Source: Ascidiella aspersa (lineage: Eukaryota). Taken from it: a DNA stretch of 64,000 nt. Where the stretch lies: NCBI GenBank assembly GCA_963924565.1, contig OZ004608.1, forward strand, positions 25,296,001 through 25,360,000, written 5' to 3'. The position numbers were made by a program, and so were the translations under genes. The notes beneath the pieces were generated by a model. That model searched no databases. It was given only the letters and a program-made list of their open reading frames with translations, and was not told the DNA's origin. Below, piece after piece: positions 16,933 through 28,172 of this stretch; the first letter of the stretch is position 1; each line of letters opens with the position of its first letter.

Positions 16933-17875
16933 TATTTAGGTCATTTGGGTTAAATAATTCCAATATGCAGTTCGTTTGATTGCAATGCTATGTTCAATTT
17001 GCCATAAATTGAGATCCTTGTTAAAAGCACTCATTTGTTATAAAACTAGTTAAATCCAAAGCTTTGGGTTGAGTGTAAAGCTACTACTTTAATATCAAAT
17101 TAACAAAAAATCCTGAGAAAATGTTTGAAAGAGCATGGCATCGGCAAACTTTCGACATCATGATAACAAGTATATATAAAATATTTAACAACGTTTTAAG
17201 GGAGCTAGCAAAACTTTTCTGTCAACAATAAGTGTTTTACGTGTTAAAATTATTAACAACCGTTCGTTAGACAGTGATAGACAAAACATTTTTCAATGTC
17301 TTCTGCACACATTGGAAGCAAATTACAACTCAGTTGAGAAGTTAGAGTTTAAAAAGCACATGTCATACAGATCTGCATCGAAATTTGTAAGTCACAAAGT
17401 CAAAATCGTTTTTACAAATTCCCTTACGTGTCGTCTTGTGCATTTCGAGTCTTGGCGTTACTGCAATAAAGCCCATCAAGAATGAGACATAGGCAGCTAA
17501 CAGTGCTGTGTTCATCGTTTCCAAATAGCTTTAAAATTATTTATGTACACTTGTACAGCTGTTTACTTATTTGCAAATATCTTTATGGAATGACAAGCTC
17601 GAAATGTCTTCAGGTTGGAACGAAACTCGGCAAGCGTGACTTGTGGCGTCGGCAAGAAAAATATAAGTGATTTTTAACATTGTTTTTTCAAAAAAAAAAT
17701 TCTAAAAGCTATTTTTGTCACATTGCCCCTAATGAAAAACGTCAATTTGATGAGTTGTCCATTGAGGGTCCTTTGCCATGCAAACGTTTGAGTAAAGCTG
17801 ACCCAGATACTGCAAGCGTCTATATCGAGCACATCAAAACAAGAGAAAGAAAAAGCCGAGCGAGATATTATTGGG

Positions 17876-20800
17876 CTATTCGTGTGGGGACCTGGCCATA
17901 GAGTGGTACTCAGGGTTGGCGTTCACTTTCAGAAACGAAGCGATTTTGTTGATGAGGGTGGTCAGGGCGACGGAGGTCACCATATCCCAGGCGTCCTCCC
18001 TGTCCAGTCCATGTGCAGTCAGTTCGTCCAGCTGGCGGTCCGAAACAGGTAAGTCGCTGGCGATTTCGAGCGCGAAATCGACGATGGCTCGCTGGCGCGG
18101 AGTAAGGTCTGCGGTGCCCGGATTGACTGCTACCTGAAATGGAACAGCGGCGATACATCAGACCTGGATATATTTTTGCAATAACTGTCAGTTGCCAATC
18201 GATTCCCACAACATTGTGAAGTTAATTAGAAAATTTCGTTCATTACATACAATTCAAACAGAATTTCAGAAAGGGAACATCATACACATAACACACACAA
18301 ACAATATTTGTAAAAAAATAACAACAAAAATGAGAGCCTGTCATATGCAGACAGAAACAATACCAAAATCTGCTGTACTGAATCGTATCGAAAGAAACAC
18401 TGTAATTAAACAAAATTAACCAACGCGTGGCCCTTATCGCAACGCAGGAAGCGGCAAACAGGAAAAGCATCACTTTTTGCTGAAACAAGTAAATACCTGA
18501 TCGGCCAGGTAGGGATTTCCGGACGAAAGGCGATGTAGTGCGCTATGTGTGACAACACAATAACTGCATTTGTTGCGGGCGCTAACAACGACTCCGATCA
18601 GCTCACGGTCTTCCTTCTTTAGGTTCGAGTCTTCTGTTGAATGCGGAAGGATGTTAATGGCAAAAGGTAGAGCAGGGCGGTTGAAAATTGTTCTTTATAA
18701 AGGTGCATTACACTAGAAAGATTGGACTTTCTATGCAACACCTATAAAGAACTTTATAATCTATACTTAACCGACATTCTTAATTATAATATTTCAGTCG
18801 AGTCTTATTTTTTTTCTGCTAATATACATATCCGATACCCAATGACAAGTGGTAATATCAGTACTCATCCGATTCTAGGATGGTATCGGTGCCGATCCGA
18901 TACTAAATTTTTACAGGGTTTTCGGCATGATTTGTGATCCAGCGTAAGTAATGTTTTTTACCTTGAAAGGCAACTATTTAAAAAAAATATTTAGTTAACA
19001 TCTGAAGATCCCCAAACTTATTGACACTGAAGGAAATTTTGACCTCGCAATTAGGAAAAATATATCTATAAACGTATAAAATTAATATTTTTTGCTCGTT
19101 TTCGTTTAAGCGTATCAAATTCATTTGGTATCCAATCGGGTTGCGATACTTTTTTGTCAAAATATCGGGTATCAGTATCAGAATCAAACGTCAATTATCG
19201 GATATCCCATGACTGTTAATAACAAGTGCTTACAAGTACTTTCAACTCAGTGATGGGTAGTTCCGCCTAACGCCGAACCCACGCAATAAACAGAATAATG
19301 AATAGATGATAATATCGATAACTCTATGGTTTATAATTATGCCACTGTTATTGGTGTTACGTAAAGGGTAAAATATATATTTAACGACAATAAAAGTGCG
19401 TTTCGGCAAAAAACGTTAGCAAATCACATAGAGTGCTTTATCGGTTCTCGAAGAGTTTGCGACAAAAGCAATCTGACGTGCTTACATACTTCGGTTTGTG
19501 TTGGCGTCGTAATACTCCAAGTAACACTTGAACTCGTCTGGACGATGCGCAAGCGCGTGAAAGAGGTTAGGAATGAAGCCGACCTTGTCGTCCAACTTGT
19601 ACATACGCTCCTGCACGTGCAGCGGAAGCTCTTTTACCTGGACGTAATAGGGGATTAAAAATGTGTTTAGTCTTATTTGAACATAGGATATTATTCCTAA
19701 GAAATAAGATAAAATTGAACAAATAAAGGGATGTTTTTCCGGGTTCTAAATAAAAATTAGCTTAAGCTAAATTACTGACGTATCTTTTTTGAGAAATTCT
19801 CGAAGAAAAGAATCATTGAGAATGTTCGCGCACATAATAAGGATTTATAATGTGTTTGGTCTTATTTGAACATAGGATAATATTCCTGTGTTCAAATAAT
19901 AAAAAAGACAAAATTAAAACAAATAAAGGGATGGTTTTCCAGGTTATAAAGCAAAATTAGCTTAAGCTAAATCACGGACATCTCTCTTGTTGAGAAATTC
20001 ACTTATTAAGAAAAGAATCATTGAGATTGTTCGCGTACATAGGGATTTATAATGTGTTCGGTGCTGGTTATAAATACCACCGAAACATGTGTGATACTTC
20101 GCATTTATTCCGATACTGATTGACAAATAAGCGTACGGCCTGATCCTATACCGAAATAAATTCCTATGATCAAATAAGCAATAAACTAAAATTCAAATAA
20201 AGGTATTGTTTTCCAGGTTATAAAGCAAAAATTGGGTTAAGCTTTAGGGACGTCAATTATGTCAAGAGTGGCATGTTAACTTTTTTGAGGATTTTGGTCT
20301 TATTTTCATATAGGAGAATATCCCTGTGTTCAAATAAGAAATAAGATAAAATTGAACAAATAAAGGGATGTTTTTCCAGGTTATAAAGAAAAATTAGCTT
20401 AAGCCTAATTACAGACGTCTATTTTGTATGAGAAATTTACCTTTTTCGGATAAGAATCATAATTGAGACTGATCGCGCACATACACATAATTGCCTTATC
20501 GTATGACTTACGGGAAAGGACTGTTTTTTTTACTAATACACCAGTTACAAAAAACGATCGAACCCTTAGAATGAACTAAAACATTTTTAGTGCTATATAT
20601 TGGTTATAGGCTTATAGCTTTTTAGGAACCAAAACGCTAATCGAGTAGCACATAAACTAAGTTTGAGTTACAACCAACGGACGTTTCGGCGTTAGATTTT
20701 TTAATGACTGAGAACACCCCCAGTTATATGCTAAATACAGGGCCAACGGGAATAATAAGAAACGTGCCCATTAGCAGTATACAAGCGGGGCAATCGGGTG

Positions 20801-21548
20801 CACTTACATTATTAATAGGATAGCGAGATGTGACCCTCGATTGTTCCGGACTGTGGCTTTTGGCGCAGGTTTTCTGAAAGCAGATCGGCGATTGGTGATG
20901 ACCAGCCGCTCCATACCCGCTGTTTACTTTAGCCGCGGGTTCGATGATCTGCAATACAAAAAAATTTTAACTTGCTTTAAAGCATGCCGACATGTTCAAT
21001 TACAGTTGGTCTACAACAGGGGTGGCGTACGGCTCGCCAAATGATTATTCTCCGGCCCGCCACCTTCTTTATGAAATAAGTAAATATATTTTTTGGCTAT
21101 TTCAACTAAGCAAATGTGAGCAGTGCCTACCCTGGAATGCAATTATGAACAATGCAAGTTTCGCCAACAAACTGCAGCAGAATAATTGTCAGTTAAAACT
21201 TATTCGTAGGTAGGTTTAAACTCGCGACTAGCAAAATGTTGCCCAATGCCCACCTATGGTTACAAAAACGATCATAAACATTATAGATGTCATTGGAAGT
21301 GTAAACAAATAGTAACAATAATTTATTCTTTGTCTATTGATTTTTTTATTTAAAAACATTATTTTCAAAGTTACAAGCAAACTGTATGAGTTGGTAGAAA
21401 TTCCAAAGTCTTGTAACATACTTTAAGGTAAAGTCATACGTTCTAATAAGTTCCGTAGTGCACAGGAAAGAATTTCCACTTCATAAAACGAAAAATAGCT
21501 TACCTGAAGAAGCGGTTGAAAGGTGAACCTGGCCAATGTGCGCTTCAT
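17876..21548 (-). CDS. AhpD-like peroxidase-related enzyme (CMD/AhpD fold) with putative mitochondrial presequence, 242 aa
   Basis: Exons 21548-21504, 20948-20808, 19637-19490, 18633-18497, 18133-17876 (729 nt, all GT-AG, in frame). Protein: MKRTLARFTFQPLLQIIEP...SRYPINNVKELPLHVQERMYKLDDKVGFIPNLFHALAHRPDEFKCYLEYYDANTNRKDSNLKKEDRELIGVVVSARNKCSYCVVTHSALHRLSSGNPYLADQVAVNPGTADLTPRQRAIVDFALEIA...EDAWDM...NANPEYHSMARSPHE. Carries the AhpD signature E-x11-C-x2-C-x3-H. Confidence 0.9.
18770..19210. mobile_element. MITE-like element rich in ccgata/tatcgg motifs (same family as ~60620-61011)
   Basis: Shared blocks ggtatcggtgcc..cgatac, atgatttgtgatc, gcgatacttttt..tcaaaa and similar 3' ends; ends approximate. 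Confidence 0.55.
19650..20480. repeat. Degenerate tandem array of a ~190-bp unit (about 4 copies) in the AhpD-like gene intron 2
   Basis: Recurring gtcttatttgaacatagga..aaataaagggatg.ttttcc.ggtt..aaattagcttaagc..gagaaatt..aagaatcat near 19670, 19860, 20190 (partial) and 20298. Confidence 0.85.
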
Positions 21549-22528
21549 ATTAGCTAGCAAGCAACACCTAAACTACTAAAACTCTAAAATCCTGGAACAC
21601 AACAAGAAAAGAATTGGCAAAAAGGGCACTTTACGAACGAACTTATGTTACGCGGAACACAAAATAATCCTTAGTTTAGTGGAACTTTTGAATAGCAAGT
21701 TATTGATTTTAAAATTAATTTAACGTCCAGAATGCGGTATTCGTTAAACAAGTTTGAAACCTAATTAAAGTAAGGACATTACCATATTTTGAAACAAAAA
21801 ATGTCAAAAGAGTAACACGTATAGGCTACACAGTAAAGGTTTCAATAAAAAACAGCATGGCTTTAAATTAAACAACAAAGGCACGCCTAATAGAAAGTCA
21901 TGGTGGAGATCACAAAACAAAACAGGACAGGAAAAAGATGATAACAAATAATTTAAAAATTGTTATAATAATCAACGTTTGATAATTTAAATGACTAATG
22001 CTAACGTATCAAAATAATTTGAAACTATAAACAGAGATGAGTCCTCTAGATATTCGGGCGGTGAAATTCGGAGATATTCCGTACATGATTACCACTCATA
22101 AAAAGACACGTATACCACACAGTATAACATATTTTGATTCCGACCCAACGTTCTGGCTGGAAACTGGTACAAATACAGACAAATATATGTAAAGTTGTTT
22201 GTGTAAGAGAAATAACACAAGCAAATGGTTGGATTGGAAAAATCCACGTCCTATGTAATCATATATATTATAATATATATTTATTGTCGGTAATACCAAA
22301 TCTAATGATAGAAGCTCATGCAAGAAGATGTTGAATTCATCAAAAACACTTTTACAAATTTCTAAAAATCCCCTTATTCCAATAGGGTAGACACTTAAAT
22401 AGAGTAAAACTCGCTAGGTTTCACGCAACCAATATATTTTTAATTTCGAAGCATTTTTAGGTTTTTGGAATCTCCTTGTAGCCAACGGTCGGTGGTGTCA
22501 CACCCCTGTGACGTAGCAAGGAGTTGGG

Positions 22529-26699
<4,171 letters not shown>

Positions 26700-28172
26700 T
26701 TCCCCCAAAAAAACAGATTTTATCTGTAAAATGAAAAAAAAGAGTTAAAGACAATAAAGTCTAAGTAAAGTATAATCCTGGTGAAAAATTGTTATTATCT
26801 AATAACAGAAGTTAATTATTAACCATCTTCTTATTAAATGAAGAAATGGGATTCAACCCTCAAATTATATAGGCATACCAAAATGGTCATTTTGAGGAGG
26901 ATGTAGCAACTTGTCCAAAAAGGTAAGATTTTGATGTAAAATGACATAATTAGACACAAATTAAAAAATGGGTAAAAACACAAGTAATAAATATCACTCA
27001 AATCGGTTGTATAAAACATTAAATAAATATCAAACAAAGAAATTTGTATTGAATATAAAATAAAGAAAAAAACAGTAGCTTTCTGTCTATATTATTTTAA
27101 CGAATCATATAATAACACAAATGTCAAGGTTACTCTTAATGGCAAAGATATGACTGGTTGGTCGATGTCGCAATCCTTGCAAGTCCAATTAAATTAGACA
27201 TACATGAAGACCAAGTACTTGCAAATGGCTTAGATGACACATTCTACTATTTAGCAAAATACAAGAGAACCTGTGTGGAAAAAAAATGGTAAACAAGGTA
27301 AAATAACATCGGAAATTGCAAAAATAAAAACCACAAATGAAAAGTTACACATTTTTATTTTTATTTTGGACATAAATATTTTTGAAGCGCTACTGTAAGG
27401 GTACTGGACACAAACACCAAATTAATGTAGGGTAAAGAGTAAAAAAATATTAATTTTTATCATAAAATATTGTTTTTATTATAAAATATAGAAGCAGAAC
27501 CCAACGAAATGGATGCAAAGCTAAAATCCTATGCAGAAAACATATTATAAGGAAAATATTTTACAAAAAGATGCAACACCAAAGTGATATTACAACATGC
27601 TCTTTCAAACCAAATAAAAAAAGTTTGTAGATTTCAGGGAAACAATAAACATATCAACACTTACGCATAAAAATTTCGTAAATTTAAATAAAATATGAGG
27701 TAAATCTTAATAAAAAAACAGCAAAATATTATCTACAAATTAATTAAGTATGAATCTTTGTTAATGAAAAACAGCTTGGTAGGGCACAAATTTGCAAACA
27801 GTGTGCCTGCATTTTTGGCGAGATGATTGGACACTCTACCAACAGGGGAGTGCATATTTTAATTCAAGGCCAACGCTGTAGTGGCACTATATTATGCTTC
27901 AGCATCAATGGCTACAAGGCACTGTGGGGAAATACACTTAGTACTTTGTTAATAATGGATAGGTATGCTTTATCCTCAAACATCTTTTTTTTTTGTATAA
28001 GCGTTGTCAGACTTTGAATTGCATGAGAGAGATGTGGCAAGGATTTGTTACAAACAAATTTTTTCCTTTATTCATAAAATGTCATGACCCAATTGATAAA
28101 CCTTTGCCTGAGGTTAAATCGAAACTTTAACTAGCCCTTAAATTTCTGAATTGCCTGCAGTTGTAAGGCATT

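Follow-up and report, generated by a model that had tools for sequence, protein, structure and literature searches.

A spliced, single-copy AhpD-like gene of Ascidiella aspersa and its possible place in mitochondrial redox control

The gene and its surroundings

The stretch studied here, called the window, comprises 64,000 nucleotides (nt) of the ascidian Ascidiella aspersa (contig OZ004608.1, positions 25,296,001 to 25,360,000), and all coordinates below are counted from its first letter. On its minus strand it contains a gene for an AhpD-like protein, for which the original prediction had proposed five GT-AG exons. This structure was borne out: the five minus-strand exons have GT..AG borders and join to a single open frame of 242 amino acids, and their joints were found in RNA. 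The coding part of exon 1 (21504..21548) holds codons 1-15 with the start of a putative mitochondrial presequence, and its joint to exon 2 (20948/21504) was seen in 4 reads and in a contig of run X3. Exon 2 (20808..20948), supported by the frame and RNA, holds codons 16-62, which encode the remaining N-terminal extension and the beginning of the conserved core. Exon 3 (19490..19637), supported by a profile match and RNA, holds codons 63-111 plus 1 nt and covers TIGR01926 positions 10-52. The helix-turn-helix of the AhpD core is encoded by codons 112-157 in exon 4 (18497..18633), as assigned by matches to TIGR00778 and PF02627 and by RNA. Within this exon the catalytic motif Glu122...Cys134-Ser-Tyr136-Cys137...His141 was placed at 18545..18604 by the frame and by equivalence to residues of the solved bacterial protein 2PRR. 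Intron 4 (18134..18496) follows in phase 0 after Ala-Asp-Gln; it was observed in RNA, and its position appears to be common to vertebrate orthologues, as judged from mis-spliced database models. Exon 5 (17876..18133), assigned by the frame and the profile, holds codons 158-242 and the stop, covers TIGR01926 positions 103-178 and carries an animal-type deletion of one residue.

The introns measure 555, 1170, 856 and 363 nt in the 5' to 3' order of the gene. Junction reads, the proposed check of the splicing, skipped all of them: raw RNA reads of run X4, of which about 6% was read, span the four joints with 4, 2, 2 and 7 reads, where each two-read joint rests on one read start. In run X3, whose library kind is not on record and whose coverage consists of exons only, one contig of 4182 nt was joined at all four introns. 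RNA coverage was observed over the exons and not over the introns, save at a repeat, and the exonic reads were single-stranded in direction. Five differences were listed within the coding sequence, and the four located in the core are synonymous; 21 further difference rows lie outside that listing. When the animal's own genome was searched with three protein queries, a single locus and no paralogues were found. A Pfam family search of the same genome gave zero matches, the window gene itself included, and is therefore uninformative on paralogues. In the mitochondrial COX1 of the same animal, AGA/AGG codons stand at conserved glycine positions; this is the ascidian code and marks the host as a tunicate. 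The ascidian gene is real, spliced, transcribed and single-copy.

Downstream of the stop a transcribed region on the minus strand (17300..17875) extends further. Upstream, the same strand is transcribed with gap-free coverage at 21549..22300, which is probably the 3' untranslated region of a TMEM19-like gene and/or a 5' leader. This DUF92/TMEM19-like gene (region 21549-26720, minus strand) lies upstream of the ATG and ends 980 nt before it, at 22529. The X3 contig contains 1201 further nt upstream, about the size of a TMEM19-like mRNA, and AG acceptor-like sites lie just before the ATG. The two genes possibly form an ascidian operon resolved by trans-splicing; a contig over two genes does not prove one transcript. 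At 21592-21748, 14 X4 reads jump back by 157 nt and the depth is raised. This is likely a tandem-duplication allele in that individual, or possibly a circular RNA, one end being an acceptor AG. In intron 2 a unit of some 200 nt that contains inverted repeats occurs in three to four degenerate copies (19655-20483), likely decayed copies of a non-autonomous transposon. In intron 3, a short dispersed repeat (18860-18915) draws many reads and contigs of other loci on both strands.

Family membership and catalytic residues

The protein belongs to the TIGR01926 peroxidase-related enzyme family (AhpD-like, CMD superfamily), as had been predicted. Exons 3, 4 and 5 match this profile at consecutive positions (10-52, 59-102 and 103-178) with 23, 44.7 and 44.7 bits; the library scan scored the exons separately and not the joined protein, and their rough sum is 112 bits against a cut-off of 81.8. 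Orthologues score 148-202 bits on TIGR01926. The joined protein reached 210.7 bits over positions 5-194 of 195 on a profile of bacterial rows only, where the best of 500 shuffled controls reached 6.9 bits. Exon 4 was also above the cut-off for TIGR00778 (37.2 bits, cut-off 27.8) and PF02627 (26 bits, cut-off 23). The motifs named in the original prediction (GFxPN, LAHRPDEF, ADQVAVN and TPRQRA) are all present in the spliced protein.

The AhpD-type catalytic spacing claimed earlier was found as E122-x11-C134-S-Y-C137-x3-H141. An alignment of 70 rows has 35 columns with a conservation of 90% or more; the window protein matches 29 of them, and the five catalytic positions are all among these. Its best solved relative is 2PRR of Ralstonia eutropha (YP_296737.1, E 5e-77 to the family profile), which shares the Glu/Cys/Tyr/Cys/His set. 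2PRR is a bacterial protein, itself uncharacterised, without a presequence and one residue longer after the catalytic helix. Glu122, Cys134, Tyr136, Cys137 and His141 of the window protein are equivalent to Glu74, Cys86, Tyr88, Cys89 and His93 of 2PRR, which are reported to correspond to the residues of the dithiol and proton relay in AhpD (PMC4674687). For the orthologue from Lingula, taken as a stand-in for the window protein, the AlphaFold model shows the all-helical 2PRR-type fold, with a template modelling (TM) score of 0.97, a root-mean-square deviation of 0.9 Å and 60% identity to 2PRR.

The AhpD proteins of M. tuberculosis and C. glutamicum share the Glu-x11-Cys-x2-Cys-x3-His spacing and the helical hairpin, and the actinobacterial AhpD is a reductase of AhpC and other peroxidases that is fed by lipoyl E2 and Lpd. 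However, its His132 is a Tyr in the window protein, the motif lies elsewhere in the chain and the topology differs. M. tuberculosis AhpD shows 11% identity to the Lingula model (Foldseek E 0.19; actinobacterial AhpDs 11-12%), and the window motif exon scored 17.7 bits on the actinobacterial AhpD profile TIGR00777, far under the cut-off of 192. In the sestrins each domain is reported to match 2PRR, and the pair of domains superposes on the dimer of 2PRR (PMC4674687). The window protein is distinct from them, as had been stated: it has one domain, both cysteines and a predicted presequence in place of the leucine/GATOR2-binding half, and on the sestrin family PA26 (PF04636) it scored 17 bits, under the cut-off of 29.4. 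It is the single-domain counterpart of the sestrin fold.

Distribution and descent in animals

With a fish query, the named proteins among the best 120 of 7,996 matches were those of bony fish (si:ch211-175m2.5) plus one snake. Other named members came from the frog Spea, from Haliotis, Biomphalaria, Mactra, Elysia, Saccostrea, Mytilus and Potamilus, from the brachiopod Lingula, from Diadema and Patiria, and from emu, kiwi, tinamou, kittiwake, camels and a vole. None of the names among the matches listed belongs to a cnidarian, a sponge, an arthropod or a nematode, in searches that were not aimed at those groups. Close bacterial relatives are patchy and were found in 15 of 301 sampled genomes of the phylum of the Mesorhizobium genome at E <=1e-40. 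The window gene is 47% identical to a Coilia protein over 195 columns. It shares with si:ch211-175m2.5 and the animal orthologues the domain, the catalytic set, the indel, the intron-4 position and the N-terminal extension, whereas the window copy is fast-evolving and appears, from exon-skipped models, to lack the vertebrate intron before the GFxPN motif.

Several database models deviate at the cysteines. In camel and vole models (P0282 and P0417, Camelus; P0210, Alexandromys) the second cysteine is replaced by serine (CxYS) and the frames are truncated. One placental model is filed as a DCAF10 isoform, which suggests that the locus lies beside DCAF10. The nearest relatives of the window gene (P0170, P0187 and P0296, support 100/97) read CNYG and have insertions after the catalytic helix; they are a diverged branch that lost the second cysteine, possibly from other tunicates. 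The snake model P0022 has a partial first copy without the first cysteine, and in Biomphalaria (P0149/P0295) a paralogue without the second cysteine is fused to a BED-type domain in some models. These snake and Biomphalaria models are signs of duplication plus loss of one cysteine.

In the searched literature, with subscription papers and supplementary tables outside its scope, the zebrafish gene name si:ch211-175m2.5 was unmatched and no paper on the animal family was found. In the available text of a sestrin review from 2024, the AhpD-like relatives discussed are all bacterial (PMC11429811). Databases already contain the animal orthologues under the label of uncharacterised proteins, and the gene may be listed in omics supplements on fish or molluscs. 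The window gene encodes an old animal redox enzyme that is apparently unstudied and less surprising than first claimed.

In a tree of 60 rows, after removal of 16 long or redundant rows from a set of 76, all 23 animal-type rows, the window gene among them, formed a clade with support 100/96, and in a quick tree of all 76 rows the animal clade had an SH-like approximate likelihood-ratio support of 99. Against the vertical reading stands that the window gene is long-branched in the free 60-row tree and falls among molluscs rather than vertebrates, and that the approximately unbiased (AU) test does not reject a grouping of the window gene with bacteria (p 0.31; the log-likelihood is 13.9 lower). 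The topology tests rejected neither a chordate clade (p 0.41) nor a position of the window gene outside the other animal rows (p 0.52).

Two more characters, the indel and the intron position, speak for orthology. The distance from the first catalytic cysteine to a conserved tryptophan is 72 residues in the window gene, in 119 of the 120 rows of the fish-query list and in 27 of 27 invertebrate-type rows. It is 73 in 117 of 119 bacterial-type rows, and the two unnamed proteins closest to the window gene have 74 and 76; leftover rows were unparsed in this count, and many bacterial labels are our own reading of unnamed metagenome proteins. Of the 24 animal-type database models, 13 have a break or a skip exactly at the intron-4 position, as read by eye, and this holds for none of the 14 bacterial-type rows that the same script had flagged; the sharing of the intron is thus read from protein models and not from vertebrate DNA.

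Since orthologues with the same indel and intron occur in deuterostomes and protostomes, the window gene is very probably not a lineage-specific acquisition, and its presence in lophotrochozoans places it in the bilaterian ancestor. That the window gene is an orthologue of the genes in vertebrates, molluscs, the brachiopod and echinoderms is very probable, and with it this early presence. We conclude from these comparisons that the gene with its intron would already have been nuclear in the chordate ancestor. The horizontal acquisition by this lineage offered in the original prediction finds no support in view of the orthologues in deuterostomes and protostomes, the common indel and the common intron position, and its alternative, a patchily retained ancient gene, fits better. 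A separate bacterial acquisition with introns gained later is very improbable. It agrees with the AU result, with a best bacterial alignment score (454) near the best animal score (487), and with the reported lateral gain of an intron-bearing TIGR01926 gene by the protist Halocafeteria, in a tree that contains other eukaryotic homologues (PMC5447177). Yet the window gene would then have had to gain the one-residue deletion and the intron position of the other animals independently, and both trees put the window gene inside the animal clade with high support. Recent transfer or contamination was ruled out by the animal neighbour genes, the spliced transcript and the common animal synapomorphies; the flanking genes are animal-type and encode a fibrinogen-domain protein, DUF92/TMEM19, a major facilitator superfamily transporter and a tyrosine phosphatase with fn3 domains. 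Monophyly of the eukaryotes (animals plus protist-like rows, labelled from our own sequence reading) was neither shown nor rejected (p 0.55), and in the free tree the protist-like rows scatter among bacteria. The first entry into animals may have been either an ancient transfer into stem animals or descent from earlier eukaryotes.

Localisation, electron donor and function

The N-terminal extension of the window protein is about 50 amino acids long, with a net charge of +3 over the first 30 residues. The predicted Arg/Lys-bearing extension is present, and its basicity is modest. No hydrophobic signal, transmembrane stretch or C-terminal peroxisomal signal was found in the window protein, and among 132 animal rows just 2 have an end of the peroxisomal type. 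In the Lingula model about 60 N-terminal residues are unstructured. We applied a crude presequence rule of our own instead of a trained predictor (an extension of at least 15 residues, a net charge of at least +3 and at most 2 acids in the first 30 residues). The pattern was found in the window protein, in 108 of 121 vertebrate rows and in 11 of 13 named invertebrates, but in only 2 of 116 bacterial rows. Because most animal members have a basic, acid-poor extension that bacteria lack, mitochondrial import is likely, in line with the possible mitochondrial role named in the original prediction, and the extension probably acts as a matrix presequence. The import signal of the window copy itself is modest and borderline. 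That the protein is cytosolic or dually localised in Ascidiella, whatever the orthologues do, would agree with its net charge of just +3 and the missing cleavage-type motif; given the long extension, the lack of signal, transmembrane or peroxisomal features and the family-wide pattern, we consider this quite unlikely.

Our best explanation of the whole, which we offer tentatively and would not yet call probable, is an old and likely vertically inherited mitochondrial dithiol relay that is likely re-reduced by lipoyl groups. The protein would be imported into the matrix by its basic presequence. There a Glu-His-Tyr relay would activate the CxxC pair, which would alternate between its dithiol and disulfide forms, with a hydrophobic hydroperoxide or an oxidised partner (for example a peroxiredoxin) as the substrate. 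The family chemistry makes this activation and cycling quite likely. The disulfide might then be re-reduced by the dihydrolipoyl arms of a 2-oxoacid dehydrogenase E2 or of the glycine-cleavage H protein, and these arms would be recharged by DLD and NADH. The re-reduction is the weak step and only a tentative proposal, as the donor assignment is borrowed by analogy from the distant actinobacterial AhpD.

Characterised relatives give the background for these steps. PA0269, which has the same residue arrangement, is reported to show weak thiol-dependent reduction of H2O2 (PMC3141380). Deinococcus DR1765 (6K40, E 8e-37 to the family profile) is described in a review as guarding against H2O2 in a Cys-dependent manner via its CxxC (PMC8945050). 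The AhpDs of C. glutamicum are reported to be mainly reductases of partner peroxidases that are fed by Lpd/SucB/NADH (PMC10460364). Since known AhpD-like proteins are mostly weak peroxidases and reductases for partner peroxidases, the word peroxidase may overstate the direct activity. The protein may work like the fungal Ohr, a bacterial-type dithiol peroxidase with a mitochondrial presequence that is reduced by dihydrolipoamide and that demonstrates the feasibility of a lipoyl-fed system in mitochondria; its fold is unrelated, its activity was shown by assay, and the available text of the source reports it as absent from animals (PMC5384416).

Besides the long branch and the AU result, several observations weigh against the proposed lipoyl-fed relay. 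The extension of the window protein has no R-x-[YFLI]-[SAC]-[ST] cleavage-type motif and barely satisfies the presequence rule, and the 35 conserved columns include 6 at which the protein departs, four of these being C-terminal. For proteins of the 2PRR type, neither an activity nor an electron donor was found in the searched literature. A gene for lipoyl E2, Lpd or AhpC was carried by 0 of 23 bacterial neighbourhoods (6 plasmid regions, 2 of 4 genome loci and 15 loci with 1.5 kb on either side, in which 102 of 139 candidate frames were scanned and one duplicate locus was dropped). Finally, the second cysteine is replaced in the models from camel and vole, in the two unnamed proteins closest to the window gene (CNYG) and in the Biomphalaria paralogue. 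Because it is missing in several members, the dithiol cycle is not universal in the family, and these losses leave room for a sestrin-like cycle on one cysteine.

In the bacterial neighbourhoods a hydrolase gene was considered as an acetoin-dehydrogenase E2 and excluded from the count, as it scored 66 bits against a cut-off of 307. The same-strand neighbours included an acrylyl-CoA reductase gene, AcuI, in Mesorhizobium (L005:4607-5626), a rhodanese domain in Paracoccus (L011:7558-7950) and a TIGR01244-like sulfur transferase in a gammaproteobacterium (L006:3313-3993). The rhodanese-type genes (2 loci) and AcuI (1 locus) are a hint of sulfur or electrophile handling; they are too sporadic and are not conserved in the 15 further loci. 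Deriving the function from gene context was dropped, since no neighbour is conserved across loci.

Two other functions were weighed for the same protein. As an equally old mitochondrial enzyme it might work like a sestrin on the first cysteine alone, or be recycled by thioredoxin-2 or glutathione instead of lipoyl groups. This would suit the near invariance of the first Cys, the Glu and the His beside the repeated loss of the second Cys, and the lack of a genomic tie to lipoyl genes in the 23 neighbourhoods; human Sestrin2, each domain of which matches 2PRR, is reported to reduce cumene hydroperoxide with one cysteine (PMC4674687). However, the CxxC is kept in all 120 rows of the fish-query list, in 12 of 13 named invertebrates, in 118 of 118 parsed bacterial rows and in the window gene, and the characterised AhpDs favour Lpd/SucB/NADH (PMC10460364), so we regard this as fairly unlikely. 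The protein might also detoxify small molecules, such as hypohalites and halogenated or electrophilic metabolites, like the debrominase Bmp8 or RclX of P. aeruginosa. The marine Bmp8 matches in fold (Foldseek E 5e-6 with the Lingula model, profile E 1e-4), the AhpD-like RclX is reported to guard against HOCl and HOSCN (PMC7950407), and the scattered bacterial neighbours include acrylyl-CoA reductase and rhodanese-type genes. Such a role would fit a gene that is kept in aquatic animals and decays in placental mammals, but terrestrial birds and a snake retain an intact CxxC copy. Bmp8 is only 21% identical, compared with 60% for 2PRR, and the bacterial neighbours vary between loci, which leaves a detoxifier unlikely.

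The control of peroxides and disulfides in animal mitochondria is taught as a matter of thioredoxin-2 and glutathione chemistry paid for by NADPH. It is possible, although we hold it to be doubtful, that animals since at least the bilaterian ancestor have had a third mitochondrial antioxidant arm, a lipoyl/NADH-fed AhpD-like dithiol enzyme that is independent of thioredoxin, glutathione and NADPH. This enzyme would be the unduplicated, fully catalytic counterpart of the sestrins and, in animals, the analogue of the Ohr of fungi. It would be intact in tunicates, fish, birds and molluscs and one-cysteine or decaying in placental mammals. If this is true, it would link peroxide and disulfide control in mitochondria straight to NADH and the 2-oxoacid dehydrogenases, a link that also exists in actinobacteria and in the mitochondria of fungi. 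With the zebrafish orthologue the lipoyl-fed idea can be tested at once. If the lipoyl activity fails, the protein would still be a conserved orphan enzyme lacking a substrate. The family is also a living relative, with one domain and two cysteines, of the fold that is the presumed source of the sestrins. That placental mammals lost the second cysteine would be a redox difference from other vertebrates that had gone unnoticed.

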